Shown: positions 25,911 through 54,873 of the stretch, piece by piece
How the letters are laid out: each line of letters opens with the position of its first letter
How positions within the stretch are numbered: the stretch's first letter is position 1
Source of the DNA: a virus
Direction: 5' to 3' (one strand)
Virus record (IMG/VR): IMGVR_UViG_3300042691_044733
Coordinates: 32,001 to 96,000 of that record
Length of the DNA: 64,000 bases
Position numbers and translations under genes: made by a program
The notes under the pieces: generated by a model
Database searches by the model: none
What the model was told of the DNA's origin: nothing
Seen by the model: the letters and a program-made list of their open reading frames with translations, nothing else

Positions 25911-26034
25911 ATCTACCTTGACCTTTGTATTTCTTAGTATAATATTTACTTTTTTTACTATTACTAGATTTCTTTTTAGTGTGAACTCCTGTTTTTCTTT
26001 TTGAAGGTTTTGGTGAAAAGTTGTTAGTTTTCAT
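25909..26034 (-). CDS. small highly basic protein (41 aa)
   Basis: Hand-translated MKTNNFSPKPSKRKTGVHTKKKSSNSKKSKYYTKKYKGQGR*. ATGA overlap with the upstream stop, ends at the terminator. Confidence 0.7.
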   Translation of the reverse strand: MKTNNFSPKPSKRKTGVHTKKKSSNSKKSKYYTKKYKGQGR

Positions 26035-29000: not shown

Positions 29001-31823
29001 AATTCTAGCTTTTTCTTTATAGAATTCATCATTCAATACCATTACAGTATTGTTTTTTAACCATTCTCTTTTCTTAAGATCATACTCTTCAGAATCTTTT
29101 TCAATCTTTTGATCTTCAAGACTTTGTAAAAATCTTAGATAAGCGGCATCAAATGCTCCAGGTTTTTGTTTGTAAGTATAAAACTTTCTGGATTGCTTTC
29201 TATATTCCTGAATCTTTCTTGCTATAGACAAGGCATAATTATTAGTTTCAGGGTTGTCTTGTTTTAATGAGCCATCTGTATTATAGTCTGAACCTAAAAG
29301 TTTGTATTCTCTCCAATAAGCTTTTTCTAATTCTCTGTTTTCAAGAATATCATCAATAGAATTAGAAGTAGTATGTAAACCTTGAATTTTAGAAAGTATT
29401 TCTTGTTGTGCTAAATATGCAAGCTTACCTACTGTATCTTCAAAAATTTCATACATCTTATAATAATCATCATGATAATCCTGATGCATGTGTGCTCTAT
29501 TATGATTATTTAATTTTTTTAAAGCATTTGAATAAGCATTTTTTGCATCTTCTGTTCTTGTTTTATAATATTCATCACGTGCTTTTTCAACATCGTCTTC
29601 AAGTTTTTTTACTGATCCTTTATAATCTTTCCAAGGATTTAGGAATGTTATTAATTCTTTAAATGTATTTGTATTCTTATTATAAAATCTTTTATCAATA
29701 GATGTAAGATCTCTACCCATGCTCAATCTTGAGGTAGCACTTCCATATCCTGCTTTTTTAACAAGAGGTTCTATTTTATTGAAAAATTCAGACATTTTAT
29801 TCTGTACTGTAGCAATCATTTCAGAATAGTTGTCTTTAACATACTGAGCAAATCCAAATATAACTGGATCCTGATTGTACATATAACCTTCTATAAATGA
29901 AGATATTCCAGCAGCATCTTCTAAGTTTCCTTCTAATAAATTTTTAATTTTTTCAGGTGAAAGTCTAAGTTCTTTATATTCTGCTTCTAAAGATTCTATT
30001 TCTTTTTGAGGGGCACCTCTTTTTCTTTTGAAAGCAAGAAGATCCATGTAGTACTTATCAATATTCTCAGTCATCTGAGAAAGTTGTTCAGTTAACATTT
30101 GTTCACTTGCTTCTTTATAAACGGCATCTCTATATTTCTCAGTTTTCTTAAGTTTTTTAGAAATACTGTTTATTAATGCATAAAGAGGGTTATCACTTTT
30201 GAAACTATCTGAATATCTTTCTTCATCAATAACAGATTCAACTTCTTGGATGAATTTTTCCCATTGCGATAGTACTTGATTATAATAATAAATCTTTGAC
30301 AGTTTTTCTTTATCATTCATATCTCTACTTAGAATTTTGAAATGATCAATTAATCTGTCAACTGTTACTTCTAATCTTAATAAACTGTTTAATAGTGCTT
30401 CTGCTTGACGTTTGTAATATTCAATCTCTTCAGACTCAGATTTAAACTCTGGTGTATTAACAGTACTAAAAAATCTTAAGTTTGATAAAATCTCGGTTAA
30501 GTCAGATCTATCAAGTTTATCACGCAATGCCATTCTCAAATCTTTATATTTAGATTTTGAGATTGTTTTTTGTTGTCTGTTAATTACATCAAAAAAGTTA
30601 TTACTGATTTTAATGAGATCACTACTTTCAATCTTATTGAGTTCTTTGAGAATTTCTTCACGACTTTCTCTTATGAAACCTGCAACATCTTCTGTATTAA
30701 GAAGATCTTTATCTATTGTAAAATCTGAGTTTTGAATTAACTGAAATAGTTCTGAAATCGTTGTATTAACATTTAATTTTTCAATACTGATTCTTTCCGT
30801 AAAGAGTCTTCTGAATAATTGTCTTATAGCATAAAGAAGGTTATCAATAAAAGATTTATATTTTGGTGTGAATTTTTCAGGATCAAACTTAGCCTGAAGT
30901 GCTCTAACAATTACTTCTTCTTTAAAGATTGCATCTTCTTCAGAATATTCTGGATATAAACTTTTAACAGCTTCTATAAGTTGCTTACCTTCAGCAGTTT
31001 GACTTAATTCAAAGAAAAGATTTTCAAATAATACAGAATTTTGTAATTTAATACTTCTTACTAATGGATGTGCAAATTCATGGAATGCAATATCTTGTGT
31101 GATATTACTACCAACAAAATAAACTTTATCACCCACAAAAAATGCTTTTTCATTATTGTAGGTTTGTTTTCTTAATGATAAAACTTCTTTAGCTTGCTCT
31201 GGAGTTATAAATTCATACTCCACTCCAAATTTATTAGATAAAATACTTAAAAGGTTCTTTAAAAGACCATTTATTCCAGCTGTATTATCTGCAAGTTCAG
31301 ATGCTACATTAGAAGAATCTTCTATAAAAGAATATTGTTGATCATAATCTTCAAAGTCTCTGTAAAACAATACATCGTTTGACATAATTTCAAATGGAGT
31401 ATCTGTTGGTGTAGGCATAACTTCACCATCTACAATGTACTCATTTGCTTGTTTTTGTCTTAAAATATAATCTCTTTCAGCTTGTTCTTTTAATACTTCT
31501 GATTCATGTTGCTTTATTAAATCCTCATCAAGTTCATTTAAGAGTTTGATCTGATTTGCAGAAGGTGCTATTTTAACAACTGTGTTTATACCTTCTATAG
31601 CAGTATAAGCAACATTACCAATTTTTTTAGGTCCATTGTTTATCTGTTTATTTATTTCTTGTGCTAATCTATACCCGTATCCTTTTGTTTGTTCACTTGT
31701 AAAGTTTCTATAAGGATTTTTTATAAATCTAATAACACTATCACTTCCATACTCAAACCAGGGTTTGTTGTTTAGAATTTTTTCTATAGTGTTGTTTAAT
31801 GTTCTATTGCAAAGTTGTCCCAT
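26031..31823 (-). CDS. giant virion cargo/ejection protein with zincin-like domain
   Basis: ~1930 aa, likely start MGQLC at 31823. FHEFAH...EEVIVRAL. Lies in the vRNAP cluster. Confidence 0.75.
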   Translation of the reverse strand: MGQLCNRTLNNTIEKILNNKPWFEYGSDSVIRFIKNPYRNFTSEQTKGYGYRLAQEINKQINNGPKKIGNVAYTAIEGINTVVKIAPSANQIKLLNELDEDLIKQHESEVLKEQAERDYILRQKQANEYIVDGEVMPTPTDTPFEIMSNDVLFYRDFEDYDQQYSFIEDSSNVASELADNTAGINGLLKNLLSILSNKFGVEYEFITPEQAKEVLSLRKQTYNNEKAFFVGDKVYFVGSNITQDIAFHEFAHPLVRSIKLQNSVLFENLFFELSQTAEGKQLIEAVKSLYPEYSEEDAIFKEEVIVRALQAKFDPEKFTPKYKSFIDNLLYAIRQLFRRLFTERISIEKLNVNTTISELFQLIQNSDFTIDKDLLNTEDVAGFIRESREEILKELNKIESSDLIKISNNFFDVINRQQKTISKSKYKDLRMALRDKLDRSDLTEILSNLRFFSTVNTPEFKSESEEIEYYKRQAEALLNSLLRLEVTVDRLIDHFKILSRDMNDKEKLSKIYYYNQVLSQWEKFIQEVESVIDEERYSDSFKSDNPLYALINSISKKLKKTEKYRDAVYKEASEQMLTEQLSQMTENIDKYYMDLLAFKRKRGAPQKEIESLEAEYKELRLSPEKIKNLLEGNLEDAAGISSFIEGYMYNQDPVIFGFAQYVKDNYSEMIATVQNKMSEFFNKIEPLVKKAGYGSATSRLSMGRDLTSIDKRFYNKNTNTFKELITFLNPWKDYKGSVKKLEDDVEKARDEYYKTRTEDAKNAYSNALKKLNNHNRAHMHQDYHDDYYKMYEIFEDTVGKLAYLAQQEILSKIQGLHTTSNSIDDILENRELEKAYWREYKLLGSDYNTDGSLKQDNPETNNYALSIARKIQEYRKQSRKFYTYKQKPGAFDAAYLRFLQSLEDQKIEKDSEEYDLKKREWLKNNTVMVLNDEFYKEKARILNEISELSKDNKNEEIIELYKKITNLISAYKDENGQPIGSQMNEDLRKEIKKAEEEIINIRKKLRITNALTESEQEIYHELNTLYKAGAKLTEDELDTLFDMFSKIKESAKSGENNERIGELIEELFDLQSRMPTTDYVDTINDFLTPEMIEYLETNYGFKYFTASNVDVLQDADFAENLISMNPLFEKWYNANHIYSEYKKKKKLIRKYRPSRAWSYIVSLNEDYYEKTEIRDSEGNLIDEIVGKPDRSYFYREVKDSYVNDNGETVKLKTERITILDCIQQGIPIEMATIDMHGKWLPKPGNGPYKNDKYFTLKTTEPDKYKLLLSLIESHLSYQKDLPYSSRLDLEIPRYRMGNYEIGLSALKKENPLSRWAKQLRAAFTRQPDDLDRDLNPNEKMMVVNADLFDEDYIKIPITGMFDLEIDQTSYDVMGGMMRYMQSGVKQSKLLEMLPTAKALQSVVNNPDNNPDKYVKGMKLFRKAKMVASDLISPVKQKGLSIRAKAVNNFIEREFEGKQLTGLIQNGFFPKLTGQLQKAAGHAFFSFNIPSALKNSLGLRFQSLIESAGGNNFNFIDYTKGSAWAQSATMEISHQIYKLGSKSLKVQLVELMDPLQGRLFTKISESTGSARSLFSDVADFKFLTNVRKWTELNSTLSVFGALLNKEKIKRDIGNGKTELITYDEAWEVVDGVIRLKSGIDPEYNINGKKYKAFVRKVHNTVNSLAGAYSSFDSPEANRYLLYRMIMSMKTYFMRMFMNRFAYSHITNAAFSPRYNAYTDGLSLGYYTEAYNSMRMAVLTKGKNLQSLTTEQKVAWKKVISEVALLYLLKSILVEIIFGFNPDDDDKYEKLRRKSGALPGPFVSEDVEHPFKVGGWLENHALYLAMLVRSENEAWIPSPGYGLDDYANILSIQSIPLKATLIDWSKAIGYALDSMSDDPAAYYKREVGPYDFQQEGGSKFLNYLMKNLFTMSGTTIDPVTGITKQQSILTKR

Positions 31824-31825
31824 AA

Positions 31826-34090
31826 TTATAATATACAACTAAAATCTTTTTGTTCTAAATCAGTTCTTATTCCTAAATCATCAGTATCTTCTTTCTGTTC
31901 TCCAAACTCATAAAGAGTTTTCATTTTAAAATCTCCAAATTTACTTTCATCATTTAAAATGGCTTGAAAAAAATCTTGAAATAATTCAATTCCAGTTCTA
32001 AGATCTTCAAAATTTTTACTATTTAAATTCTCTAAAACAGGAGTTCCAAAAAATTTCTCCATTATAGCATTAAAGAATTCTATAAGTTGTTCAATAATTG
32101 AAGAATGTTTTTTCTTTATACCTAATGTCTTTTCATATTTTTCTAAATGTTTTTGATATGCTTCTTTAAGTGCTGGTTCATTTGCTACTAAAAAATCATA
32201 CATTGGACGTAAGTAATCATGTTTTTCATCAACAATGAATATTTTATCTGGATCAAAATTAGGAGTTAATGTTAACATTATTGTACCTACAAGATCAGGA
32301 AATATTTCAATTGTATCGTCTTGATTATAACCTCTAGAACCAACACCTTTAATTTGATAATTTTTAAAAGCATCAGTAGGATTAACAGCTAAATCTTTAA
32401 TAAAATTATGAATATCAGCTCTTAATTTTGGATCATTTATATTTAAAGCATAATCAATACTATGACCTAATTCATGAGCAAACACATAATGAAAGTGATT
32501 TTTTCTCCCTCTCATTGTACTTTTAAAAGCTATCTCAAAAGGAGATTGCATTTCTTCATATGAAGCTAAATCTAAAGATTCTAAAAAAGTGCTTGTAAGA
32601 TATCTATGCAAACTATAAAGATTTGGATAGGTATCAAGAATATAATCTTCAATTTTAGAATGTGTTTCAACTAACAGTCTATTGAAATTTTCCATGTATT
32701 CTTTTGTAGGAAGTCCTTTTTTTTCTGTAGCATTATATATAAGAATTTCAATTAAATGACGTTTAACCATCATGAATGAATCATCTTTTCTATAAACTTT
32801 ATCAGTATTTTTATAGTAATGTTCTGCCATGTCAACTACAGAACTATTTAACTTTTTAATATCTTCTTTTGTTATTTCTAATTCTGGGTATGCTTTCATA
32901 AAATCATAAATAGCAACATTTAAAGACATGAATGAATTAGTTTGCTGAAGAAGTGAACCTTTTATTAATGATTTTATAGGATTTATTTTTTGAGCTGTTT
33001 TTCCGTCTCTAGAATTAATTTTATTACCATCTACTCTAAAAAATCCAGTAGCATCTTCAAGAATAATTAATCTTGCTAAGTGAGCATTTGGTAATTGTCT
33101 TAAAAGATTTAAAATAGCATCAAATTCTAAATCAGAATAATCTTTATGACTAAGTAAATTTTCTAAAAATGTTTTGATTAAATTATCCTTATCTTTTGGT
33201 TTATTCAATTTTTGAGCATCTTCTTTTAATTTATCAGCATAAGAATTAAAAAGATCTATTAAGTCTTGGTACTCATCATCCGAAATATTTAAATTATCCT
33301 TTTTAAAAGTTTCGTTTTGAATTGTTGCATATAGAGATTTAATAGTATCAAGAGCACTTTTCATAAAAAAGCTGCTAACTAATTTTTCAGAAACTATTCT
33401 TTCAGCAATCAGTATTCGTTGTTGTTTAAGTTTTTGGCGAACTAATTCTTTTTTTGATTTTTTATATTGTTCTTGTTTAATTTTATTTTTTTCATCTCTT
33501 AATTCATGATAAGAAAGGATATCAATTTTAATTTTGAATATCATTTCTCCAGTGTCAATCCACATATATGTATTACCATCTGATTCTTTTCTGATGATAG
33601 CCAGATTGGGTTTATCATTCAACAAAAATCCTTTTTCAGTTTCAGAAGGTAAACGTTTTCCTTGAGAAGATGTTACATAAGTTTCCCATTTTGTTTTTTC
33701 AGAATTAGTTAATACATAGGCATACCTGTCATTTATAAACTCTATCCCGAAATTAACTTTTAAAAAGTTTCTATATTTTTTAGACCTTGAGTTTGTTATA
33801 GTAGGATATGGATCTTTTTCGGCACCATATTCAAATAATTCTTCTACTCCTGGTTTTATTTGTGGTTGTGATTTTAATTCCTCCAAAGAGATATTAGTTT
33901 TGGAGAGCAAAGTGATATAAGTACTAGTTTCTAAATCTAATTTAGAAGGATAGTTATTCAACCCATTTCTAGATTGCCACATTGCTATATCAGCAGCAAG
34001 AGATGAAATGTATGGTTCAGTAAAATTAGATCCATATAATTGTTTATATAGACTCTTGAAGTCTTTACTTGTTTTTAATACACAGTGCAT
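31826..34090 (-). CDS. polyvalent-type cargo protein with zincin-like domain
   Basis: Likely start MHC at 34090. IKPGVEELFE motif, AHELGH with a downstream E (EIFPD). Confidence 0.7.
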   Translation of the reverse strand: MHCVLKTSKDFKSLYKQLYGSNFTEPYISSLAADIAMWQSRNGLNNYPSKLDLETSTYITLLSKTNISLEELKSQPQIKPGVEELFEYGAEKDPYPTITNSRSKKYRNFLKVNFGIEFINDRYAYVLTNSEKTKWETYVTSSQGKRLPSETEKGFLLNDKPNLAIIRKESDGNTYMWIDTGEMIFKIKIDILSYHELRDEKNKIKQEQYKKSKKELVRQKLKQQRILIAERIVSEKLVSSFFMKSALDTIKSLYATIQNETFKKDNLNISDDEYQDLIDLFNSYADKLKEDAQKLNKPKDKDNLIKTFLENLLSHKDYSDLEFDAILNLLRQLPNAHLARLIILEDATGFFRVDGNKINSRDGKTAQKINPIKSLIKGSLLQQTNSFMSLNVAIYDFMKAYPELEITKEDIKKLNSSVVDMAEHYYKNTDKVYRKDDSFMMVKRHLIEILIYNATEKKGLPTKEYMENFNRLLVETHSKIEDYILDTYPNLYSLHRYLTSTFLESLDLASYEEMQSPFEIAFKSTMRGRKNHFHYVFAHELGHSIDYALNINDPKLRADIHNFIKDLAVNPTDAFKNYQIKGVGSRGYNQDDTIEIFPDLVGTIMLTLTPNFDPDKIFIVDEKHDYLRPMYDFLVANEPALKEAYQKHLEKYEKTLGIKKKHSSIIEQLIEFFNAIMEKFFGTPVLENLNSKNFEDLRTGIELFQDFFQAILNDESKFGDFKMKTLYEFGEQKEDTDDLGIRTDLEQKDFSCIL

Positions 34091-34092
34091 AG

Positions 34093-37000
34093 TTAGCAAT
34101 TTAAAATATTATCTTTTTTCTCCTGTGGAAAGCTATCCCAGATTTCTTGAGTGTACCCAATTTCTTTTAAGGTTTTACCTGAACGTACTTTTAGGTTATT
34201 TACATCATCAAAGATAGTGTTATTTACCTCACGATTTGTAGGAGTATCTTCTTTTTTTACAAGTTTTCCAAATTCACCTGAATTATAAAAATATGGATTA
34301 ATAAACTGGAATTCTTCATACAGTCTTTTTGATAAGTACATGTAAGTTTTATACCCTGGGGCATCTGGAATTTTTGGTTGATTTAATAAACTCTCTGATC
34401 CAGTATAGCCAAGTAATGAGTTACCAACACCACGTTCATCAAATACTATGATTTTACCAACAGATTGTTCTTTTAATTTCATTATAGCATCCTCAATAAG
34501 TTTGATATTATCAGAGTAAGTTTCATCCGTCATTATATCTTCTATAGAGGAAACCAAAGCTCCTTTTTTAGTAGGTATCCCAAAAATATTTTCTGGGTTA
34601 ATCATAGGCTTCTTAACCTCTTTATCCTTATTATTAATCTTTACAACTGTAACATCTATTGTTTCAGCTGCATTTCTTAAAACAGTGTTAGAGTAATTAG
34701 CACCCATGTAAGCAAGTTTATTTTTAGAACCTGGAATAAAATCATCATAAATGAACAATGCATTAGGTTGAGAAGCAAGAGTTATATTTACGTTGTCAAT
34801 TAATGTTTTAATTGCAGGTGCAAATCTCTGTTTTGGTTGTGCTTTAACATTATCTGTTTTTGGAGTATAGAAGAATACTTTAGGTGAATAAACAGATCCA
34901 TAAAAGAAACCTTTTGTTTTATCTTCTGCAAAATATTTTTTAATTCTTTTTCTTGCTTTGTTTACAATAGGTTGATCTGCATCTACATTCTCATTATTAG
35001 AAGCAACGGGTTCTTTATAAAGTTTAACAAAGAATGCTTTGTATTGATCTAAATATTTTTTAGATTCATTAGAACTGAGAATTCTTTCTGCTCTTCTTTT
35101 TATAGGTTCCATTAACATGTTCATTAAATCAGTATTAACAATTCTGTTAATTGCAAATGCCCCCATTCTATCTTGACCAGATTGATAAAATGCAAACATT
35201 GGAAACATATTAAATAACATACTTATTTTATCATTATCTATTTCATTCTCAACTTTCTTAACATTTGGATCTGCAAGTTTTATTAACTGTTCATGATAAA
35301 TATTTGCTTTATCTGGAGTTAATTTATTTTCTGTAAATTTCAAATTTGTTATTGCTCCTGATCTAGAAGGTAATAATGTTTTAAGCAAGCTATATTCATC
35401 TGTTAATTCAGGATAATGAGAAATTACATCTACAACCTGATTTGCAAATCCTGTAGGACTATACATCATAGCAACAATATTGAATTTACTTAATAATGCA
35501 AAGTCTCTAAGAAAATCTTCATAAAGATATCTTTCGGTACGTTTTTTAAATTCAGAGTCTGTTTCTCCTTTATTTTTTTCATACATTGAATCCAGCATTT
35601 TTACTTTCTTCTGATATTCTCTTGTTTCTTTAAACTTGGTAAAAGATATCTCAGAACGTAAAAATTCTCTTTCATAAATGAATTTTACATACTCATTAAA
35701 GTTTCCTCTGAAAGGATCTAGGTTAATTTCAATAGGTGATAATCCTTTTGCTCTATAAGTTGGTTTACTATAGATCTGATTTTTAAAATCTCTTTCAAGT
35801 CTTATTAAATCCACATATAGATTACCATCTTTTACAAATGCACCATTTTGTAATACAGTTTCGCTGATTACTTCTTTCTCTACAGGAGAATATTCTTTAT
35901 TTGTAATTCTAAGTGACTTGTAAGGTTTTTTAGGATCAAATTCTATGTTATCAATGTATTCTTGGAAAGCATAAGATAAAAAGTCATTTCTTAATGCTTC
36001 TGCAAACTTTTCTTTTGTTTTCTCATCTGTACCAAAGAAAGCTCCAAATGTTTTAAGTGGATCCAATGACTCAACAGTTTCTTCAACAAACTCTACTAGT
36101 CTGGGATGGTTTCTAAGTTTAAAGAAATTACTCAAGAAATTAATTGCAAATCCTTGAACTTCAAAACTACCTATAGGAGAATTCAAATCAATACCTCTAA
36201 CAATTTCATAAGGGAATCTTCTGTTATTAACAAGATCTATTTTCTTATCAAGTTTTTGTTTTGCTTCATACATGTTTGTTGATCTTGAAGTATCAAAGTT
36301 AGTATTCATTTTAATTTGAGTAACTGCTTTTGACATCTCTTCAATTTCAAGAAAATGTAAAAATACTTTTAAATCCTCTTCGGTCAGATTTCCATCAAAC
36401 TCATCTAATCTTTTGTTGAGGTTCTCAAGTGTAAATACTTCTTTATCAAGTTCTTTATTTAAATTATTAGACAACAAGGTATTAAAAATTGTTCTACTTT
36501 GAGTATAGTTACTATCAAGTTTTTCAAGTCCTTTACCAAGTTGTTTTTGTACAATAGGATGAGATTTTAATACCATTGCTCTTGCTCTGGTTCTAAATTC
36601 TGTTCTTGGTATAACTCCAAGTCCAAGTGCTGGTGCAAATGTACTTTTGGTTAATTGCTGTTTTTTGAGATAATCTCTAACCATTGGTTGGGATAATAAA
36701 GCAACTGCATGCTCTATAGGTACACCTGCTTGAAGCATAAACAACATAGAAGAGGTTAATTCTTTATTACCTTGAATATCAAAGATCCACGCATCTTTAG
36801 CAACGTCAACCCAACCATTAATAAGCTGTCCTATTAAAGTTGAGATTTTGTTTTTCTTGTTTGTATCATAAAAATGAGACAATGAAATATTACCATTTAT
36901 TGTATTATGCGGTAGCAACATGGTTTGTTGTAAAGTATAATAACCAGATTTTTCTGTTCCTAGTGTAACTGTAGGTGACATGTAAGCACCAACCCTGTTA

Positions 37001-40000: not shown

Positions 40001-43000
40001 CCATTATTGAGTCTATGAATTCTTTCAATCTCTGATGCAAGATACTTAACATATTGATTTACAACTGTATATGATAAGTATGAAGGTTTAACAAATTCCT
40101 CAATTGGAAAATTATGATTTGAACCTTCTGTTACTATTCTATAGAGATACGTAGTTGCTTTATCAGAGTGACGTGTACCTTCAGACACACCATAGATAAC
40201 CATAGTGTATAAATTCTGTAAAGTGTAACTGATCTCATCTGCTTCAGATGATGCAATACCTAAACCTGAGAACTCATCATTTATAGTCAAGGAAATACCA
40301 GATGAATTTTTTAATTCAATTCTACTTTTAGGTACCCTCTTTCCATACCCTTTACCGAATAATCTTTCAACACTTCGAAGATTTTTAATAAAAGGATTTC
40401 TTTCAGGATTAAATAAAACCATAGGATCTAATCCATCAGGTCTTTTTTCTGAGATACTATTAAAATCTTGAGCTTTATTCACAGAATCAATCATTGTAGA
40501 GATTGTACTTCTAAGTGAATATTCATACTGAGGATCTCCTTTAGCATTACTAACCATAGCTCCACCATACTCATCTGAGTATCTATAAACAAGATCTAAC
40601 AATTGTTTAAATGATGTGGCAAGGGTATTTCCTTTATAAGCATCATTAATAAGTTTGGAGATAGAAGTTACCTTAATTCCATTCTTTTCATAATGTTTTA
40701 TTTTCTCCATTAATGCTGAAAGGAATCCTCCAAAGTTATTTCTTAAACCACTATTTATTGTAGGAACAAATGGTATGTCCATTCCTAATGCTCTAAGGAA
40801 ATGTATTGGATCATATAAATAGGTTTCCTCAAAAGACATAATTATCTTATTAAGCATCAAGTAATTAGCATCTGTTCTTTTTGCTTTTTTACCAAGTTCC
40901 TTATGATCATCTTTTGCTTTCCTGATATATGGATTCATATTATCAGGTTGTTGAAAATTAGTTTCCCATATTTTTAAAATACCAGATGATTCAAGTTTTG
41001 CATTACCAGGTTTGATTTCTAAACCTGAATATTTTCCTTTCTCATCCTGAAGTATATTCACTGTCAACTGAACCAGTGGAATTTTTTTGGATGCAATAAC
41101 GTTAGCAAAGTTTGTCCATAAAGATAACTGACCTAGGTTTGTACCTGTAGAAAAATCTAAAAATACGGGACCAAGTTTCGAAAGCAATTGCATTAAAGAA
41201 TTATCTTTAGTCTGTCTTGATAATGCAGTGATTGCTTCAACCTGATCTATAGGATTATAAATACCTTCTAAGTTTCTTTGAAGTTTATTCCACACTGTAT
41301 CAAAGTCTACTAATTCAGGAAATCCTAATTCATTATAAACAAGTGACCCATCAGGTTTGTACTTAAACAATGTGCGTATAGTGTAAAGAACTTCAGCACT
41401 TGCAAGTTCTTTCATTGCAATTTCATTACCTGATTTTTGAGCATATGAATCCTTATTTGTATTTTTCATTTGCTCTTCAGCGTCATCAATAGAGAAATTA
41501 TCATCAAAGTTTACATACTTTGATCTCTGCATATGATATGCAATAGTTCCCTTACCCGATCTTAATGCTTCAAGTATATCTTCTTTAGTTACTGTATTGT
41601 CTTCTCTAGCATGATTACCTGAGAAATTTATAATTGCAGTTTCTAAAATATGTTTTCTTTTTAAAAGTTTGTTCCTGTCAATTCTTTTTGGTGAGTCATC
41701 ATCTAGCGCAGAATAAATATTTGCTAAAGCTTCTGTAAGTTTTAAATAAACAGCATCATATAATTGAGCTTTATATTCTATATCACCAAGCAATAATGTA
41801 GTATATCTTTCAGTACTGTTTTCTAAGTTTTTCTCATCAATAATCTGAGATATAATAGCATCAATACTATCAATAACTAATTTAGCTTCTGCATAATCTA
41901 AGCTTACTTCCTCCTCTTCACTTAATGGACGTATTTTATTAAGAACACCAAAATCTGATTTATTTACATCAAAATTTCTATTTCCTAAATTTCCAATTGA
42001 GAGTTGTTCAAATAAAGTTTTTACTGTAGAGCTAACATAACTATTAGACATAACATCTTCTATAGATGCACTACTAAATAAAATCTGAAGTATCTCAAAT
42101 ATTTTTTGAAATATTGTTTTTCTTTTTGGGGCTTCACCCTTAAACTTCTGACCATTGAGCATAAAAGTTCTAAACTCTTCTGCTAAGAATTCTTCAACTT
42201 CAAGATCAGTAGCATCTTTAAATGTAATAATTTTACCTAAGTGAGTTGTAAATGTTCCTTTAGTGTTACGTACTTCATTGTACAAATCTGCTTTCTCTTT
42301 CTTAGATAAGAAATAACCTGTAAATACGTGCCACGCTTCATGGTATAAATCCGAATAATCAGAACCATTAAATAAAGTAATACCTGCAAAACTTGCAGTT
42401 GCCGCAGCATTAGGGTTCTCACTATTAACAAGATCAAAGAACTCCTCAAATCCAACATATTTACTTAATGGATGATTAAGATACCATGCTTTTGCTTTAG
42501 CAATCTGCTCTTCTGTTGCTTTTACATCAGACTCTTTTTGATACTTGAGTTTGTTTTTAGGTTTACCAATATTCTTAATATCTACTTTTCTACCTACATT
42601 AACATTTACTCTTTTATCTTCAGTAGTTCTTGAACCTGGAGTTTTAGGTTTTGGTACAACAACTGGTTCATTCTCATCAACTTGCTTAAACTTGATAGAC
42701 TGAACATATTGTTTTTGCTCTTCAGGAATTTCTTTAAAAATCAAGTACCCATTAACTTCTTTAAAAGTACCATCCTCTAAAGGAATCATACTGGTCCAAG
42801 TATGATTTTGTAAGAATTTTCTATACTGCTGTGCAGATAGCATTCTAGGTTTTACTATAAGTTTGTCATTAACTCTTTCAAAATAAGGTACACCATTAGC
42901 GTGTTCTGATGCTTTCAGAATATTATAAGCGTGTTTCTTGATAATACCTTTATCAGTATATGTAGTTAATGCTTGTTTTACTATTTGTTTGGCTTGTTCT

Positions 43001-44313
43001 TTTTCCTCATCTGTCATTTTATCATAAGATGAGAACGTATATGAATTTTTTTCAGTAGTAATAATTAAAGTACGTACCCCATTAAGTAATTCATATTCAA
43101 CGAATTTATTATTCCTAAAGAACGTGTCAATAAATTGTTCAATTAAAGAACGGGATTCTGGTGTATCTCTGTCTCCATTTTCTAATTCAAAATTACCCAA
43201 TAAAATATTTACAGCAGCATCTAGGAATTCTTGATCAGATTCTACTGGATTTGCAGCAAAACTTATTGACGCTCTATTAGCACCTCTAATAAAATTATTA
43301 GAAATAGTATTTATTTCTTGACCGCTTGCAGTTACAATTTTAATTCTTTTTACTTCTATGGGCAACTCTGATAAATCCTCAATTTGAGGATCACCAAGAT
43401 TTCTTCTTATTGAGTTATTAGAAGGAATATATCCAGTACTTAAACCAATTATTTCTTGAGTAATTTGATTTTTAGGACTTGATAATATAAATTCTTTTTT
43501 CTTTTCAACTTCTTTTAATTCTTCTGCAAGAACTTCTTCTGCTTCTTCAATAGAGATATTTCTTGTTTTTGCAATTTCAGGAAGTGTTTGAATAGTTGCA
43601 GGATCAGATCTAAAAAAGAAATAAACATATTTACCAGAATCTGATTCTTTATAATCATTATCTAATAATACAGGTTCCCCCAGGTTATTAGTAACAACCT
43701 GAATTAATGCCTTATTATCAACTCCAGAAATTAATCCATTATTTTGACGAAGTGTTACATAAAAACCACTAAGGTCAGAAGTAGTTTTTTCATTATCAGC
43801 AAGATAATTTAAAAAATTATAACTATGTTCTCTACCAGGTTCTTCTGAATTTCCTGTAGTAGAAGCAAGTGTGTTAGGTCTTGCACTGAATACTTCAGGT
43901 AAAATCTTAGTTTTTGGTTCTGGTTTAGGTTCTACTTTAGGGACCTCTTTAATTGCTGATTCTTGTTTCTTGTTTAAATCTAAAATTGTCTCAAGATTCT
44001 TGATATCATCATTAATACTTTTCTTTAACTGATATGCAGCAGGTAATGATTCAATAATCTTACCAGTTATTGTGTCATCTACACCAACAATATATTCTAG
44101 ATATTGAGGGATTAATCCTGCATAAGTTAATGCAAGATCATATGCGTCAGGATTTTTCTTTTTATCAAAGTTATTCTTAACGTCAGAATACATTTTTTTC
44201 ATGTAACCAATCAAATTAAATGGTTGATTAGTATCATGAAGAACTCTTATATCACTTATAATTTTTTTAAGTAATCTATATTTTTGTTGGTCATCTAGTG
44301 CACAAAAAGCCAT
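34093..44313 (-). CDS. virion-associated single-chain RNA polymerase (crAss-like phi14:2 gp66 type) with accessory domains
   Basis: 3406 aa. RIPVQGLNSM followed by catalytic GSDFDIDK (~37765-37790), DAQGW, and N-terminal YHEAWH...EEFLAEEF zincin. Confidence 0.9.
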   Translation of the reverse strand: MAFCALDDQQKYRLLKKIISDIRVLHDTNQPFNLIGYMKKMYSDVKNNFDKKKNPDAYDLALTYAGLIPQYLEYIVGVDDTITGKIIESLPAAYQLKKSINDDIKNLETILDLNKKQESAIKEVPKVEPKPEPKTKILPEVFSARPNTLASTTGNSEEPGREHSYNFLNYLADNEKTTSDLSGFYVTLRQNNGLISGVDNKALIQVVTNNLGEPVLLDNDYKESDSGKYVYFFFRSDPATIQTLPEIAKTRNISIEEAEEVLAEELKEVEKKKEFILSSPKNQITQEIIGLSTGYIPSNNSIRRNLGDPQIEDLSELPIEVKRIKIVTASGQEINTISNNFIRGANRASISFAANPVESDQEFLDAAVNILLGNFELENGDRDTPESRSLIEQFIDTFFRNNKFVEYELLNGVRTLIITTEKNSYTFSSYDKMTDEEKEQAKQIVKQALTTYTDKGIIKKHAYNILKASEHANGVPYFERVNDKLIVKPRMLSAQQYRKFLQNHTWTSMIPLEDGTFKEVNGYLIFKEIPEEQKQYVQSIKFKQVDENEPVVVPKPKTPGSRTTEDKRVNVNVGRKVDIKNIGKPKNKLKYQKESDVKATEEQIAKAKAWYLNHPLSKYVGFEEFFDLVNSENPNAAATASFAGITLFNGSDYSDLYHEAWHVFTGYFLSKKEKADLYNEVRNTKGTFTTHLGKIITFKDATDLEVEEFLAEEFRTFMLNGQKFKGEAPKRKTIFQKIFEILQILFSSASIEDVMSNSYVSSTVKTLFEQLSIGNLGNRNFDVNKSDFGVLNKIRPLSEEEEVSLDYAEAKLVIDSIDAIISQIIDEKNLENSTERYTTLLLGDIEYKAQLYDAVYLKLTEALANIYSALDDDSPKRIDRNKLLKRKHILETAIINFSGNHAREDNTVTKEDILEALRSGKGTIAYHMQRSKYVNFDDNFSIDDAEEQMKNTNKDSYAQKSGNEIAMKELASAEVLYTIRTLFKYKPDGSLVYNELGFPELVDFDTVWNKLQRNLEGIYNPIDQVEAITALSRQTKDNSLMQLLSKLGPVFLDFSTGTNLGQLSLWTNFANVIASKKIPLVQLTVNILQDEKGKYSGLEIKPGNAKLESSGILKIWETNFQQPDNMNPYIRKAKDDHKELGKKAKRTDANYLMLNKIIMSFEETYLYDPIHFLRALGMDIPFVPTINSGLRNNFGGFLSALMEKIKHYEKNGIKVTSISKLINDAYKGNTLATSFKQLLDLVYRYSDEYGGAMVSNAKGDPQYEYSLRSTISTMIDSVNKAQDFNSISEKRPDGLDPMVLFNPERNPFIKNLRSVERLFGKGYGKRVPKSRIELKNSSGISLTINDEFSGLGIASSEADEISYTLQNLYTMVIYGVSEGTRHSDKATTYLYRIVTEGSNHNFPIEEFVKPSYLSYTVVNQYVKYLASEIERIHRLNNGDPTGDVTVGDNLYKNVGNDFIIFQDILTPETKQKLLDKYISENFLREIEKEENTSLRETIQKEIEEYLNDQINKYKEDLVKMGFYQNEALMNSLVHSIRKKMNYSYLEELKASGEIDDINSFIVNSIISGYVVNDWVHKYESTAMFYGDPALYNMLKEEFHKRNSSIAATGTIPRTDDAMIHALNTPGFKGTYAQSKWYTGNPTSKKDFSDVFDSVVFSDSKRNSIYRSIYEEAFVENQKKLFKERTGKEPNAKEVEEIKKDTASIFGEYSNMKEGDAQGWITFDAYRDLLISLGKWSPYQDELYHKIINGENIDHIDIKKFFPVKKMQYAGPLATSVGLPAIGFHKFSLFPLVPNVIKGTTLEKLHNKLVENKVDYALFQTGSKVSTITNNGKLEKFYNPDGSIAFEKSEPFIKNSIFLRYFKDQLETHDSYKGKIIFSTQLRKLIEEGLMENGVPVDYKPHITDNDERYAEWSKEENKSTPFYDLALKYENQIRILTDFKKRELEKEAGLTYDKEGNAKITKDFIDFVKKELTRQELADHEIDFIDYNPVTGGLKNDLSIHPNAENIERLLTAMVFKRLVRQKTRGEALIQVSGAGFEKGNMRKATEEEQMLYNGTNELPFYHPGKDGKTKAMKVKIAMQGNFKKLLYHPAVKDLIKIKTLTEDGKYRSMTRLEALNSLLRNPEWVEENRDLITIGGVRIPVQGLNSMEFAEVYEFLPENAGNIVVLPSEIVAKAGSDFDIDKMYFIFPSLTKTITGVRKTKYVKENENLNKEELRSQLNNLYQELENVRNRYEDDIRTMINEDFDFYKLDASELKREIKILKNQILDSVNDSNVEVTDDLYESLYHLENQLFELTENVISETNWRKLDYAKEHMAIVREIDDIQSKMDSGSAAGLENNLLDTIVEILSLPTNFLELITPNGTFLLQDSVAKYGKYNREYNQHKNFRNKEAYKQGSKKVIAGTRIFEIGYNRYKQSSNNVGKATLGQGAVDNTYNVIFNRVGAYMSPTVTLGTEKSGYYTLQQTMLLPHNTINGNISLSHFYDTNKKNKISTLIGQLINGWVDVAKDAWIFDIQGNKELTSSMLFMLQAGVPIEHAVALLSQPMVRDYLKKQQLTKSTFAPALGLGVIPRTEFRTRARAMVLKSHPIVQKQLGKGLEKLDSNYTQSRTIFNTLLSNNLNKELDKEVFTLENLNKRLDEFDGNLTEEDLKVFLHFLEIEEMSKAVTQIKMNTNFDTSRSTNMYEAKQKLDKKIDLVNNRRFPYEIVRGIDLNSPIGSFEVQGFAINFLSNFFKLRNHPRLVEFVEETVESLDPLKTFGAFFGTDEKTKEKFAEALRNDFLSYAFQEYIDNIEFDPKKPYKSLRITNKEYSPVEKEVISETVLQNGAFVKDGNLYVDLIRLERDFKNQIYSKPTYRAKGLSPIEINLDPFRGNFNEYVKFIYEREFLRSEISFTKFKETREYQKKVKMLDSMYEKNKGETDSEFKKRTERYLYEDFLRDFALLSKFNIVAMMYSPTGFANQVVDVISHYPELTDEYSLLKTLLPSRSGAITNLKFTENKLTPDKANIYHEQLIKLADPNVKKVENEIDNDKISMLFNMFPMFAFYQSGQDRMGAFAINRIVNTDLMNMLMEPIKRRAERILSSNESKKYLDQYKAFFVKLYKEPVASNNENVDADQPIVNKARKRIKKYFAEDKTKGFFYGSVYSPKVFFYTPKTDNVKAQPKQRFAPAIKTLIDNVNITLASQPNALFIYDDFIPGSKNKLAYMGANYSNTVLRNAAETIDVTVVKINNKDKEVKKPMINPENIFGIPTKKGALVSSIEDIMTDETYSDNIKLIEDAIMKLKEQSVGKIIVFDERGVGNSLLGYTGSESLLNQPKIPDAPGYKTYMYLSKRLYEEFQFINPYFYNSGEFGKLVKKEDTPTNREVNNTIFDDVNNLKVRSGKTLKEIGYTQEIWDSFPQEKKDNILNC

Positions 44314-44323
44314 AATATATTTT

Positions 44324-47300
44324 TTAGCAATTAGGGTCTATTCCTTTAAAGAACTCATCATCCACATCGAGAGAGTCTGTACTTGTTACATCTGTAAATG
44401 CTTGCTTAGCAGCATCTTTCATTGCTTGATCAGAACTCATATCAATTACAGTATTAACATTGCCAGTTGGTCCATCTGGAGTTGGTGGTTTTGGATTAAT
44501 CATATCATCTATTAAAGTTTCTAAAGCATTAAACTGAGGATGATTTTTAACATCTTCATTTTGTTTAACTAACTCATCAAGTTTATTTTTTGCAATCTTA
44601 GCAATTTCTGCAATACTCATTGGTACTTTTTTATTTTCTTCTAATGTATAAAAATCAGATACATAAATTGGAGATATACTTATTGGCATTAAAGCAAGCA
44701 TTATCTCCATAATTTTATCTGCATTTTTTAAAGTATCAACTTTAGGAGATACCTTAGAATCTTCCGTTAATATATTATACAAAGGTTCTTGCAAATATAA
44801 TACATTATCTACTTCCTTGTTAGCATTTTTTTCTACTTTATCATAAACGTTTTTAATGTATTTTTTGTTTAATAGGTTTTGAATCTGAGTAGTATTTGAT
44901 TCTTCGTCAGTGTAATCCAATATAATAGTGGATTTATCGGGTGCTACAACCACATCCGCGCTATCATGATAGAACCAGTTTGTTGTGATTATAGTCTGAC
45001 CTATTTCTTTTAAATAGTTAACCTCATCTTTTATTTGCTCAAGTATTTCTTTATATTCTGCATTAGTATCCTGTGATTGAGATAAAGAATAAAAATAAGA
45101 ACCAACTTGACTTGAGTCCATGTCTTCTATAGAAGAATGCCCGTAGGATAAAAGTACATTTCTTAAAATATCATCTACATTTACAACATCGTAATCTTGA
45201 TAAATTAAATCAGGAATTGTTCCAGGTACTACATAAATAAGTTTACCTTTAAGTTTTGCGGGTACTTGTTTTTTAGGTGTCGGTCTTTCTGACTGTTCAC
45301 TCTCATCTTCCTCAGTATCCGATTCAATTGGACTTAATTGACTCATCTCAGTTGCAGTAAGTTTTGCAACAGGTAAGAATTTAAGTGCTCCTTTTTCTGT
45401 TTTTGCAGGTTTAATTGAAAGTAATGATCCTGAAATTATACCTTCTTTCTTATTTTGTTTGTTTACTTTTTCAGTAATCTGAAGAGGGAATATCTTGATT
45501 TCATCAATTTCAAATCCTGTTAAGTCTTTAAACAACTTAGCATAGATATTCAATTGAATAGCATCTTCTTCTTTTAATGAAGAATTGCCAGTCATATACT
45601 CAACCTCTCTATTTTTTACTGAAGTTTTAATATCTATGATTGAGAATTTACCTTCTTTCTCAACCAAGATGTCCATAGTACCAGCAGTATTGAATCCGTT
45701 AATTTCACCCCATAAAGTTGTAATATCACCATACACGTTATAATCTTTCAGTGCAACAGCAAGATCATAGATTATATCTGACAACTGATCAGAGAAACTA
45801 TCTGTAATTTTTTCAAATACATTAACACCATTTATTTTATAAGATGGTGATAATGAGGCATTTGTAATATAAGTTGCTTTTATTATTGGTGCAAGAATAC
45901 TTTGTACAAATGTTCTTTTATCAAATTGATCAAAACTTCCTTGAATTTGTTTTAAAATTGAAACTCCTTCAGCATCTTGATATAATACCTGTCTAAAGAT
46001 TTCATCAATAAAGTTACCTCTAATAGTTTGAAAACTATCTTCCGAAACCTGATTTTTAGAGTTAGGTTTAAATCTTGTTACTCTATGGTATTTAAGACTA
46101 CTTATTTTTGCTTTACCTGAATTTTCAATTTCAACATAATACTTTCCATTTTCAGTTTCTGGAATAGCTGCTGAAGAAGAAAGAAGTTTTTCTCTAAGTT
46201 TTTTTCTAACTTCTTCAATCATTTCTTGTGATTGCTCACTTACAGATTTTACAGGTACCTGATTTAGTTTATCAAGTGGATCTGAAATTTCTGTATCTTG
46301 TGTTGGTTGAGTATTTGCAGTAGCTGGTTTAGGTTCTGGTTTTTCCTGTACAGGATTTTCCATATTATACTTATCAATAATTGATTGTGCAATAGGGTTA
46401 TCCTTCATCCACTCTTCTATAGATGGGTCGCCACCTTGTTCCATAGCTTTTCTATGTTCTTGAATCAGAAGTGTTTGTAAGCCAACAGGATATGTTTTTA
46501 ACAAAGGAGTTGTTTCAGTGCCTTGAGGTTTAACTTCTTGGGTTTCTTCTGTTGTTGTTTCTTGTTTTGCTGTAAAGGTTGGTTTATTTTTTAATTTCTC
46601 TCCAATCAATTCTTCATAAGCATCAAATAACTCAAGTATTTTTTTGAATGTTTCTGAATCTTTTGCTACCTCGTTACCATCTTTATCAATAAACTTATTT
46701 GGGAACATTCTGAAATTTTTTAATCTATAAAGATTAGCATCATCAAAATAAACATCCAACTTAGCAATATCTTGAATTAACTGATTTGTTTTATTGTTTA
46801 CTTTAAATCTTTCTAATGCATTACGGCTAATTTGTACTTTATTTTTTTCATACTTTAAAGTAATGTCACTAATTCTCTTAGCCATTTTTAACAATGAACC
46901 TGGGTCAGCAAGTATATTTATATTTTGAGCCTGAAACTTTGCACCTACATCAAGTTTTAAAAAGTCAATGTAATCATTAATACTTTCATCAACAAGATCT
47001 GTAATAGGAAATACATTTTTTAAATTTGCAATTGATTTTAAGTATTGCATGTAGTTATCACGTACAACTTCATGAAGGTGTGCTTCAACAACTGCATTAA
47101 GATCAACTGAATCATCTACGTCTTCACCCTCTGCATCAAACATTGAGAGTTGACTATTCTCATCCATAATTTGAACATTCATCAAATTATTTTTTCTAGC
47201 ATACTCTTTTACTGCTTGTTTATATTTTGGGTTATTATGTGATCTTGTTAATGCATCCATAACACCAGAAAACTCTAAAGCAGCTTCTTTCAAACCTTCT

Positions 47301-52700: not shown

Positions 52701-52859
52701 AGAATAGAGTAATGACCCATACATTTTACTAAGTTGGTCATAACCAGAATCATATCTTGCCTGCTTGGTAGACAAAGCTTGATTTAAAAAATCCATGTCT
52801 GGTTGAAATACTGCAATTTCTGGGATAAAATCTCCAGATTGATCTAAATAATTTGCCAT
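49713..52859 (-). CDS. virion cargo/structural protein
   Basis: 1048 aa. KQARYDSG-type N-terminus, directly upstream of the giant cargo genes. Confidence 0.65.
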   Translation of the reverse strand: MANYLDQSGDFIPEIAVFQPDMDFLNQALSTKQARYDSGYDQLSKMYGSLLYSPLAHDESIRRRDDFFKKIDDDIKKVSALDFSKRENVELAGKVFDPIINDKYIIKDMAFVKSAQKAMEEADYYKNCMDSAKCGDKYWEGGVRAIHYQLDDFSKSRYSDILGFQNPTYVKGRNISKEALKFAKDMGFQMENLTFDPSGRYRIKTTNGVAAIPALSDVFLSTFGNDQGAIEYYKTQAYLNRKDYIAANASMVGEQKAEEMYFDSVLKSIPAIADQLIQEQSIKLNQADTSEKAVGSLLKTMDPETRTAKELAEALSQLTQDKKVLESNVNFYDKTKGLVNQELISSMDPKSLRMRIDSSVGNMLLSTDLVKSAQNYAQLTQKIDIKADEYALAGFEHGLRLKEISARGDEDRRTIEYKTKMELLSESFKGYGFGDGSGDTPMQLGASQGGAAVQPDAFNTDFKEQVKLSDGAVMQTDALHKQFVTEARTILNLPTDTYYNGVKVTEDVKTALRTQLKDIYGSSGDFVAEEEDSYEKPEPIKYPAVFKQEGEGLFGLSDEDVYNAASMGLSSLFKTITGWGDELLNNEPDYKKTKRTVTKQNGYLNDDYSLIDLKNETSYTDPNNQRNYRVLYDKVNHVLNEDPTMKTLFSGSAALQIAKNNATGVVKMLQDNEIKNQHNIQAAQKLAYAKFKNEKELTAFDKQVLSQYVSDKGMMSKQEFLNMYAKHPGIGKSQPIPGTFGMANVRLDVDDALARGEELYEDYSLMFSKVYNRDPSAGVKFDNYIAPVMGYNASGNFYEANPIAWMGVNSASPNSWGYKATVDTYNDVFKALNDNTKSDKVKVVFGDAGGMAGKGGTYEELEHNQNALLAVRGLLEQRGTKENAAMWDIKAYPIAVNDINKKAITITLGSGIKDKLDGTSKSPGVMPGGENSITIFMDNDVISDNNSAFSSTKNGPFATEYNSRGSVNIDFGKYGAGSLVKQSDGSMVMSGYVNVFDEKGNPTPNYFPPVVKPNPGAGEVDMAANELMNMFNAYMNQIQFIDGKPQSK

Positions 52860-52928
52860 TTAAACTTATTTATATTATAAATATAAGCAAAAAACATTAA
52901 AAGTTTATTAAACTTTTTAAGTTTAAAC

Positions 52929-54872: not shown

Positions 54873-54873
54873 T

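Follow-up and report, generated by a model that had tools for sequence, protein, structure and literature searches.

Cysteines at the facing termini of four consecutive cargo genes

The window, by which we mean the whole 64,000-nucleotide stretch of DNA analysed here, carries four consecutive minus-strand genes encoding proteins of 1803, 3406, 754 and 1930 amino acids, which constitute the RNA-polymerase cargo block in a divergent crAss-like phage (Table 1). Judged by their sequences and by analogy with related phages, the four proteins, the RNA polymerase among them, are probably packed in the particle for injection. Together they contain 7 cysteines in 7,893 residues, whereas about 92 would be expected at the frequency found in the other open reading frames (ORFs) of the window (1.17%, 157 of 13,383 residues, a pool that also includes the 754-aa protein). 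Six of the seven lie at most 5 residues from the three pairs of facing termini; for seven uniformly placed cysteines and six 5-residue terminal zones, the chance of at least six falling in these zones is ~2e-14. The two outer ends of the block (MENPKANN... and ...QQSILTKR) have no cysteine. An earlier note on this DNA had listed the same cysteines and junctions, and its positions agree with cysteine codons at all three junctions; the translations likewise bear out its statement that the series has no cysteine at its outer ends. Three further Cys-poor proteins are encoded upstream and none has a terminal cysteine. Their genes occupy the position that Cys-free proteins ahead of the chain have in relatives, which is also that of crAss001 gp45 and gp46; from this position they are probably other cargo.

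Table 1. Genes of the cargo block and its upstream neighbours. Negative residue numbers count back from the C terminus.
Gene product	Coordinates	Strand	Features
1803-aa protein, first link	44324-49735	-	Last residue is the only Cys (TGC 44327-44329, followed by TAA)
3406-aa RNA polymerase homolog, second link	34093-44313	-	Virion-type, contains DFDID; Cys4 (TGT 44302-44304) and Cys3406, the last residue (TGC 34096-34098); no other Cys
754-aa protein, third link	31826-34090	-	Starts MHC, ATG at 34090; Cys3 (TGT 34082-34084) and Cys752 (-3, ...FSCIL*; TGT 31835-31837); no other Cys
1930-aa protein, fourth and last link	26031-31823	-	phi14:2 g065 / crAss001 gp49 type; starts MGQLC; Cys5 (TGC 31809-31811); single internal Cys1221 (28161-28163); no C-terminal Cys
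Upstream Cys-poor proteins, outside the chain	49713-56586	-	1048 aa (Cys 128, 134), 647 aa (no Cys), 570 aa (2 Cys)

Identity of the four proteins

The 3406-aa polymerase shares 22-26% identity with the virion RNA polymerase (vRNAP) regions found in crAss-like phages, phi14:2 g066 and crAss001 among them (tblastn), and 23/23 reference B-type proteins match its residues 1416-2676; the DFDIDKMY word was taken from this same protein, the query. With a polymerase of locus L001, whose only cysteine is at -5, it shares 36% identity over the full length. At the DNA level, a search of a phage collection with the junction region of the window gave no match. The last protein of the block is matched at E=3.7e-17 by a profile from 23 C-type proteins, carries HEFAH at position 248, of a class with HEIMH at position 245 of the phi14:2 protein in the alignment, and is 34% identical to L001_1917, whose sole cysteine is at position 4. 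Among its 76 homologs, 70 have a cysteine within the first 8 residues; the other six appear truncated or wrongly started (e.g., P0147), and a C-terminal cysteine is found in P0161 only. The internal Cys1221, which only the 13 closest homologs retain, is left unexplained by the chain model discussed below.

The 1803-aa protein shows a weak PD-(D/E)XK nuclease-like stretch at residues ~1339-1426 (weak phrog_298 and PF12705 matches). A cysteine lies within the last 8 residues in 72 of its 75 homologs (24-40% identity), in two others it is at -9 or -10, and one, of 1149 aa, has none; in 60/75 this is the only cysteine of the protein, and in 0/75 is there an N-terminal one. A phi14:2 g067-type profile, built from 23 A-type proteins, gave no match to the 1803-aa protein at E<=1. 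By these comparisons it belongs to a different, Cys-tailed and PF12705-carrying family, not detectably of the g067 type.

The 754-aa protein combines a helical N-terminal head of ~50 residues with a conserved HExxH (HELGH at 539). An IMG/VR scan and a word-index protein search returned no relatives of it, although exhaustive HMMER searches found seven homologs; two small ones, of 231 and 453 aa, share the head and carry cysteines at both ends (positions 4 and -2, and 4 and -4, respectively). Its AlphaFold2 model, based on an 8-row alignment, is poor (mean pLDDT 54.9, with 76-85 in the head). Because Foldseek found no match of this model in the PDB at E<=0.001 and Pfam gave nothing significant for the family, the description of the protein as zincin-like derives from the conserved HExxH alone.

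Junction cysteines co-occur across crAss-like phages

We collected a main set of 81 crAss-like loci, collapsed at 80% identity to 60 non-redundant ones, in which a junction was defined as two consecutive plus-strand ORFs of at least 1000 aa and cysteines were counted within 8 residues of the facing ends. Cysteines were present on both sides at 80 of the 90 junctions, on neither side at 5 and on one side only at 5. At the outer ends they were rare (3/49 N ends, 1/56 C ends), and the interiors contained 110 cysteines in 314,268 residues, 59 of these in two loci. As a control, cysteine made up 0.76% of the residues in 152 other ORFs from these loci, of which 7.9% had one in their first 8 residues and 8.6% in their last 8. 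Scanning metagenomes with the polymerase turned up no relatives above 25% identity, and the loci obtained were used as a replication set only: in these 44 further metagenome-contig clusters, 34/38 junctions had cysteines on both sides. Thus the terminal cysteines co-occur by junction across Crassvirales, the check that the earlier note had proposed for its idea of linked cargo proteins. The discordant junctions (10/90 and 4/38) include near misses, with the cysteine at -9 or -18, cases that are the upstream border of the chain, and others in fragmented or recoded loci (e.g., L051, L059, L071). Depletion of interior cysteines is not obligatory, since L052, L067 and L158 retain the terminal cysteines despite 39, 20 and 19 interior ones.

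The junction pattern follows the proteins, not the DNA

Both chance and a nucleic-acid signal at the junctions (translational coupling, a promoter or words of the ribosome-binding site) that incidentally encodes cysteine were considered. Two junctions of the window share AATTGCTAA and its genes are tightly spaced, which would suit such a signal. However, the pattern survives at protein identities of 22-36%, the cysteine pairs are kept where 0.5-1.7 kb separate the genes and also in TAG-recoded phages, the positions vary, and both cysteine codons are in use (147 TGT, 22 TGC). In crAss001 the pattern even holds across opposite strands: the gene for gp47, a protein whose sole cysteine is at -3, lies on one strand, and those for gp50 (cysteines at 5 and -9, plus one internal) and gp49 (cysteine at 5) lie on the other. 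Since pairing there follows the order of the proteins, with one gene on the opposite strand, the phrase of the earlier note that the proteins are joined "in gene order" is too narrow. The co-occurrence of cysteines by junction lends partial support to its interpretation, in which disulfides or metal sites, stoichiometric packaging or ordered ejection, and release by reduction are hypotheses. As for chance, the window alone already gives the probability of ~2e-14 calculated above. The terminal cysteines are therefore neither a chance pattern nor a DNA junction motif, and this explanation is in effect already refuted.

The cysteine pair disappears when genes are fused

In some relatives two or three of these proteins are encoded as one. 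AB-, BC- and ABC-fused proteins, mapped by BLAST, do not have the cysteine pair, and the ABC-fused proteins of ~5,500 aa contain zero cysteines. On the tree of the polymerase core, no fewer than 4 changes between the split and the fused state map to the A-B boundary, and no fewer than 2 to B-C. The same holds in the lineage of the window: in P0087 (2523 aa, sole cysteine at 4) a 754-like stretch is fused ahead of a 1930-like body with no cysteine at the joint, and in L001, where a counterpart of the 754-aa protein is absent, the cysteine at -5 of the polymerase tail faces the cysteine at 4 of the last protein's head directly. When split termini were aligned onto fused proteins, the last 20-70 residues on either side did not align and the fused forms showed Cys-free linkers of ~100 residues; for this reason, the comparison cannot tell at the level of residues what replaced a given cysteine.

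The fused forms also bear on the idea that the terminal cysteines are processing sites, either recognised or catalytic (e.g., with the HExxH modules), and that the split genes mimic the products of a cleaved polyprotein. In the available part of the phi14:2 preprint, the fused polyproteins are called "likely cleaved" and one protein of the block is given a zincin-like domain, and HExxH motifs are present in both the 754-aa and the 1930-aa proteins of the window. However, the corresponding linkers of the fused forms have no cysteine, so cysteine is not needed for any cleavage there, and Pfam scans revealed no intein/Hint domain (none at E<=0.01 in the 1803-aa, the 3406-aa and the 754-aa protein minus Met1; none at E<=1 in the 754-aa and 1930-aa proteins). 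We regard the processing explanation as very unlikely. A split intein or protein trans-splicing was rejected: these scans list no Hint domains, and cysteines placed 1-5 residues from the ends leave no room for intein domains.

A disulfide at the same signature in cyanopodophage A4

A structural precedent comes from the cryo-EM structure of the pre-ejectosome of cyanopodophage A4, in which, as given in the available text, Cys1715 of gp27 forms a disulfide with Cys5 of gp26 (PNAS 2025, PMC12002296). In the record of this phage (Anabaena phage A-4L, Saffermanviridae) these are the sole cysteines of the 1717-aa and 1114-aa proteins. As in the window, the two genes sit side by side in matching order, and the cysteines lie 3 residues from the C end of gp27 and at residue 5 of gp26. 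The pair is kept in 5/5 related cyanophages examined, and the signature, a lone cysteine near each of the facing C and N ends, is found at the three window junctions and in A4 plus four relatives. The proteins themselves show no detectable kinship: phmmer searches with A4 gp26-gp29 against all the giant ORFs found nothing at E<=0.01, nor did the crAss profiles A and C match the A4 proteins at E<=1. The A4 chain has one link and no RNA polymerase, whereas that of the window has three links and includes the polymerase. The A4 disulfide staples a folded pentameric ring around the portal, which speaks for the link itself more than for a thread. In the available text of PMC12002296 no general rule is drawn, and "cysteine" and "crAss" each occur 0 times.

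A proposed head-to-tail chain of cargo proteins

Because the sequence rule is conserved and covaries with the splitting and fusion of genes, and because A4 has a disulfide at the same signature, we consider it likely that head-to-tail disulfides join the four proteins of the window into a pseudo-polyprotein. Once the particle is assembled, each protein's C-terminal tail would sit beside the N-terminal head of the next, and the facing single thiols would be oxidised to a disulfide. The product would be one linear 1803-3406-754-1930 chain of ~7,900 residues, the counterpart of the single 5,000-residue polyproteins encoded by some relatives. Cys-free interiors would preclude wrong pairings and internal loops, and links 1-7 residues from the chain ends would yield an unbranched thread; a set linked in this way would therefore be packed 1:1:1:1 and could leave together. 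The reducing cytoplasm would then open the links and free the polymerase and its partners. For the phage of the window, we infer the type of the bond, its timing and the purpose of the chain from sequence and from analogy. Against this model, the net charges of tails and heads showed no significant complementarity (Spearman -0.14, p=0.20). A complex prediction that paired the full 754-aa protein with the final 200 polymerase residues, made without control runs, scored 0.00, which counts neither for nor against binding.

The surroundings in which gut crassviruses live and assemble are anoxic and reducing, which counts against a disulfide. The facing termini might instead be joined through a shared metal ion or other thiol chemistry, for example two-thiolate Cu(I) or Zn with other ligands, a link that could form in the absence of oxygen and that would fit the covariation by junction as any pairwise link does. 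Consistent with it, a thioredoxin gene was searched for and not found in the phage genome. A search for an Erv1-type oxidase gave no match there, but as it gave none in its control genomes either, it carries no weight. Set against this are the single cysteine at each terminus, the flanking residues, among which K, N, S, A, P and I predominate and no His, Cys or Asp partner is conserved, and the sole solved case of the signature, A4, which is a disulfide. We consider a metal or other thiol link unlikely.

Alternatively, each terminal cysteine might bond to, or be modified for, something other than the neighbouring cargo protein, be it the portal, the inside of the capsid or a target in the host, or might act as a redox switch of activity, the proteins remaining unchained. 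Sequence data do not show which thiol meets which, the 1930-aa subfamily has a conserved internal cysteine, and crAss001 virions contain disulfides between other structural proteins, according to the accessible portion of the published data. Such partners would nevertheless leave unexplained the scarcity of cysteine at the first N ends and last C ends (3/49 and 1/56), the joint disappearance of both cysteines on fusion and the cysteines at both ends of inserted extra links; we therefore hold this possibility to be rather improbable.

Crassviruses pack and deliver about a megadalton of cargo protein, among it the polymerase with which infection starts. A chain of terminal disulfides would explain the extreme lack of cysteine and the interchangeability of split and fused forms, the fixed ratio of the partners per particle, and how they might exit in order and be released on entry. 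We see an even chance that a "cysteine-tip code" is a general and convergent route to a reducible pseudo-polyprotein in Crassvirales and Saffermanviridae podophages with giant ejected proteins. If so, every end by which a protein joins a chain needs a cysteine, sequence alone suffices to read the order of a chain and to recognise new members (e.g., the 754-aa link), and gene fission and fusion become freely interchangeable, because the disulfide replaces the peptide bond until the reducing cytoplasm is reached. For annotators, the rule offers a means of recognising members of the cargo chain that have no detectable homologs.

Comparison with other cargo systems

The literature that we searched does not describe the cysteine rule of crAss-like phages, the extended tables of the crAss001 atlas (disulfide list, mass spectrometry) lying outside the scope of the search, and the accessible texts on phi14:2 and crAss001 do not mention terminal cysteines. 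According to the available parts of the structural papers, the crassvirus cargo is unresolved (crAss001 atlas; PMC13434306); the atlas lists disulfides for the tail and gp57 only and does not resolve the RNAP-associated cargo. Homologs of the cargo-block proteins are nevertheless located in virions, in phi14:2 by annotation based on MS/MS and in crAss001 by the part of the published account available, which also indicates that disulfides do occur in its virions.

The window shares a homologous polymerase and last protein with the cargo blocks of both phages, and the tips show the same pattern: cysteines at -1, at 3 and -2, and at 3 in phi14:2 g067-g066-g065, and the positions given above in crAss001 gp47-gp50-gp49. 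The window differs in having four links, with the 754-aa protein inserted, instead of three, a polymerase of 3406 aa instead of 2180, and a first protein from another Cys-tailed family. Other crAss-like phages have single giant polyprotein forms of the block, as mentioned in the available part of the phi14:2 preprint. These keep the same A, B, C order and the general lack of cysteine; they are held together by peptide bonds and Cys-free linkers of ~100 residues, whereas the window has separate genes with Cys-tipped ends.

In the Schitoviridae, as in the window, a giant virion RNA polymerase and its partners show strong suppression of cysteine. Their ejection proteins (N4 gp50, DEV gp71-gp73) are Cys-free in the available text of PMC11445570, which explains this by passage through the periplasm and agrees with the earlier note on N4-type vRNAPs. 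Their polymerase belongs to a fold family different from the crAss type, as stated in the accessible part of PMC13434306. It is one protein without terminal cysteines, whereas the polymerase of the window carries Cys4 and Cys3406 at the two ends of a Cys-free interior.

Facing ends of four consecutive proteins carry cysteines

Within the virus record of 126,979 bases, four genes in succession on the minus strand encode products of 1803, 3406, 754 and 1930 residues, which contain seven Cys overall. The other ORFs of the window have a Cys content of 1.17%, a rate at which ∼92 would be expected in these 7,893 residues. The earlier note on this DNA had read from the translations that a Cys stands on each side of every junction between these proteins; the codon coordinates match and confirm this observation. 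The outer ends of the series (N-terminal in the 1803-aa protein, C-terminal in the 1930-aa protein) are Cys-free. For seven randomly placed Cys, the probability that at least six lie inside the six 5-residue end zones is P ∼2e-14. The seventh is Cys1221 of the 1930-aa protein. The 13 homologs closest to this protein share it, at −710 to −726 counted from the C end; the remaining 62 have a gap (47) or a different residue (15) there. Judged from this alignment, Cys1221 is a lineage-specific conserved thiol, unexplained by the model, proposed below, of a chain of these proteins. The genes upstream of the chain are included in the table, together with a Cys-rich 118-aa ORF that probably encodes a small zinc-binding protein with no relation to the chain.

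Proteins of the proposed chain, their cysteines and other features (window coordinates unless a locus is named; negative numbers count from the C end)
Feature	Position	Strand	Length (aa)	Cysteines
First chain protein	44324-49735	minus	1803	last residue
Second chain protein	34093-44313	minus	3406	residue 4 and last residue
Third chain protein	31826-34090	minus	754	residues 3 and 752 (−3)
Fourth chain protein	26031-31823	minus	1930	residues 5 and 1221
Codon of Cys1221, fourth protein	28161-28163	minus		
Three Cys-poor genes upstream of the chain, no terminal Cys	52929-56586 and 49713-52859		647; 570; 1048	none; 2; Cys128 and Cys134
Next gene beyond these three	56583-61592		1669	20
Cys-rich ORF	6012-6368		118	9 (7.6%), one near the N end
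Link between two giants, locus L173	8829-11639 of L173		417	3 and −1

Identity of the four proteins

By sequence the 3406-aa protein is a distant homolog of the virion RNA polymerase found in crAss-like phages (22–26% identity), phi14:2 g066 and the crAss001 enzyme among them, and it contains the DFDID word. The 1930-aa protein is matched at E=3.7e-17 by a profile of 23 phi14:2 g065-type proteins (the downstream partner of the polymerase), whose HExxH motif it also carries. For the 1803-aa protein, the upstream phi14:2 g067 type was not detectable; a weak PD-(D/E)XK-like stretch is present, and the protein belongs to a family of 75 homologs. The 754-aa protein looked like an orphan in the first searches, and an exhaustive HMMER search yielded seven homologs. 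This family has in common an HExxH motif, which reads HELGH at residue 539 of the window protein and is conserved in the homologs P0001, P0002 and P0004, and an N-terminal head of ∼50 residues; structure prediction followed by a fold search gave nothing reliable except a confident helical head. Because HExxH occurs in both the 754-aa and the 1930-aa proteins, the chain may include a pair of metalloprotease-like modules, a reading that no Pfam or fold match backs. Homologous cargo proteins are virion components according to the phi14:2 annotation and the crAss001 structural atlas, and we infer that the window's own phage packages them as well.

Terminal cysteines co-occur across junctions in related phages

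The conservation survey comprised 80 viral loci carrying the polymerase, plus the window, collapsed at 80% identity into 60 clusters. From one representative per cluster we took all plus-strand ORFs of at least 1000 aa, with TAG read as a residue where the locus needs it, and scored as terminal any Cys within 8 residues of the facing end. The test suggested in the earlier note, whether terminal Cys co-occur by junction in relatives, came out positive: among 90 junctions between consecutive giant ORFs, 80 have a Cys on both sides, 5 on neither, 2 on the downstream and 3 on the upstream side only. As the 754-aa protein falls below the 1000-aa threshold, the step from the window polymerase to the 1930-aa protein is counted here as one junction. 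Over the 60 clusters, a Cys is present at 3 of 49 outer N ends and 1 of 56 outer C ends, and 110 interior Cys were found in 314,268 residues, 59 of them in two loci. N-end Cys lie at positions 3 to 7 (position 3 in 47/85) and C-end Cys at −1 to −8 (−1 or −2 in 58/84); they are encoded by 147 TGT and 22 TGC codons. In a control of 152 other ORFs (150–999 aa) from the same loci, with 0.76% Cys, a Cys fell within the first eight residues of 7.9% and the last eight of 8.6%. A replication set of 80 loci from metagenome contigs formed 65 clusters, 44 of which lie outside 80% identity of the first set, 4 of these having no giant ORF; both Cys were present at 34 of its 38 junctions.

Several loci depart from the common arrangement. 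In L051, L059 and L071 the rule is broken at several junctions, and the giant ORFs overlap or are fragmented, which could reflect frameshifts, introns or assembly errors. In L052, L067 and L158 the polymerase-containing protein has 39, 20 and 19 interior Cys and still keeps its terminal Cys, so that Cys depletion and Cys tips are separable traits. The cargo genes of L002, L003, L005-L007, L009, L056 and L059 are open only with TAG read as a residue; the 4,483–4,491-aa protein has 36–42 TAG codons, and the Cys-tip pair (−4 and 3) is retained.

A signal in the nucleic acid at gene junctions that happens to encode Cys is contradicted by crAss001. There the gene for gp47, whose sole Cys is at −3, lies on one strand, and those for gp50 (residues 5 and −9, with a further Cys in the interior) and gp49 (residue 5) lie on the other; the Cys tips thus track protein order, not gene adjacency. 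The pairs are also retained across 0.5–1.7 kb between genes and in the TAG-recoded phages.

Cysteine pairs follow gene fission and fusion

We used as references the upstream partner (A), the polymerase (B) and the downstream partner (C) from 23 canonical three-gene loci, and mapped arrangements by BLAST. A and B form one protein in, for example, L010, L013, L015, L057, L058 and L068, B and C in L072 and L077, and all three in L033, L039 and L044, where the ∼5,500-aa product has zero Cys. On a FastTree phylogeny of the polymerase core (59 rows, without L068, which gave no match to the reference), the A-B boundary changed between split and fused at least four times (12 fused, 31 split and 16 unassigned rows) and the B-C boundary at least twice (5 fused, 46 split rows). 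Boundaries at gene breaks have the Cys pair, and boundaries bridged by a peptide linker lack it; this comparison is one of split and fused states, the linker region of fused forms giving no residue-level alignment with the split ends.

The same holds in the lineage of the window. Its nearest relative, L001 (polymerase 36% identical along its length, last protein 34%), is without the 754-aa protein; the sole polymerase Cys is at −5 and the sole Cys of the next protein at 4. In P0087, 43% identical to the 1930-aa protein, a 754-like stretch is fused ahead of the 1930-like body and the sole Cys is residue 4, so that what is a gene boundary (754/1930) in the window is, in this relative, a fused joint free of Cys. 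Two small proteins with the 754-type head have a Cys tip at each end (231 aa, Cys 4 and −2; 453 aa, Cys 4 and −4), and double-tipped links of 417, 654 and 1096 aa lie between giants in further loci. The 417-aa link of L173 has small Cys-rich ORFs on either side (278 aa and 247 aa), which may be inserted mobile genes.

In both outer families the terminal Cys is kept. In the 75 homologs of the 1803-aa protein, a Cys lies in the last eight residues of 72 and at −9 or −10 in 2, and is absent from 1 short protein; none has an N-terminal Cys. For the 1930-aa protein, a Cys lies among the first eight residues of 70 of 76 homologs; the remaining six appear to be truncated or to have a wrong start, and only one weak match has a C-terminal Cys in addition. 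P0147 starts MPEWKELV, immediately past the CPNxN..EW head motif conserved in its relatives; its annotated start probably lies too far downstream, hiding the terminal Cys in database entries.

Discussion

The best-supported reading of these patterns is that the facing Cys pairs would form disulfides in the particle. Gut phages live without oxygen, and no thioredoxin was detectable in the genome of the window's phage; both points count against disulfides or are left open by them. Such bonds would join the four proteins, head to tail, as a single thread, replacing the polyprotein of the fused relatives. With Cys at the ends only, the product would stay unbranched and could pass a narrow tail channel, that of crAss001 having constrictions of <50 Å. 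Reduction in the cytoplasm would release the parts, and the purpose may be co-packaging or ordered exit. Also counted against the disulfide reading, or left open by it, are the non-concordant junctions (14/128 in both sets together), the lineages that tolerate many interior Cys, the internal Cys kept in the 1930-aa subfamily and the ring geometry of phage A4.

Suppression of Cys in ejected proteins has been published for Schitoviridae (PMC11445570). Our literature search, which covered the phi14:2 paper as a preprint, found no description of the Crassvirales Cys-tip rule or of its covariation with gene splits, and in that preprint, the crAss001 atlas and the 2021 genome survey the word "cysteine" is absent (0 occurrences). 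The window adds a four-link chain, a double-tipped extra link that a relative has fused to its neighbour, and a first link that comes from a different protein family and obeys the same rule.

A terminal disulfide in ejection proteins is in print for one case, gp27-gp26 of the cyanopodophage A4, where cryo-EM places it between Cys1715 and Cys5 (PMC12002296). The A-4L record gives lengths of 1717 residues for gp27 and 1114 for gp26, and the bonded Cys is the sole one of each. The same pair is present in Pf-WMP3, Pf-WMP4, TR020 and CHP58, hence with A4 in five of five examined, at ∼25% identity. Sequence similarity between the A4 proteins and the crAss block was not found, so the two resemble each other in signature and role, with no common descent detectable. 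As described for A4 (PMC12002296), the bond staples a folded ring, unlike the thread proposed here for the crAss-like proteins.
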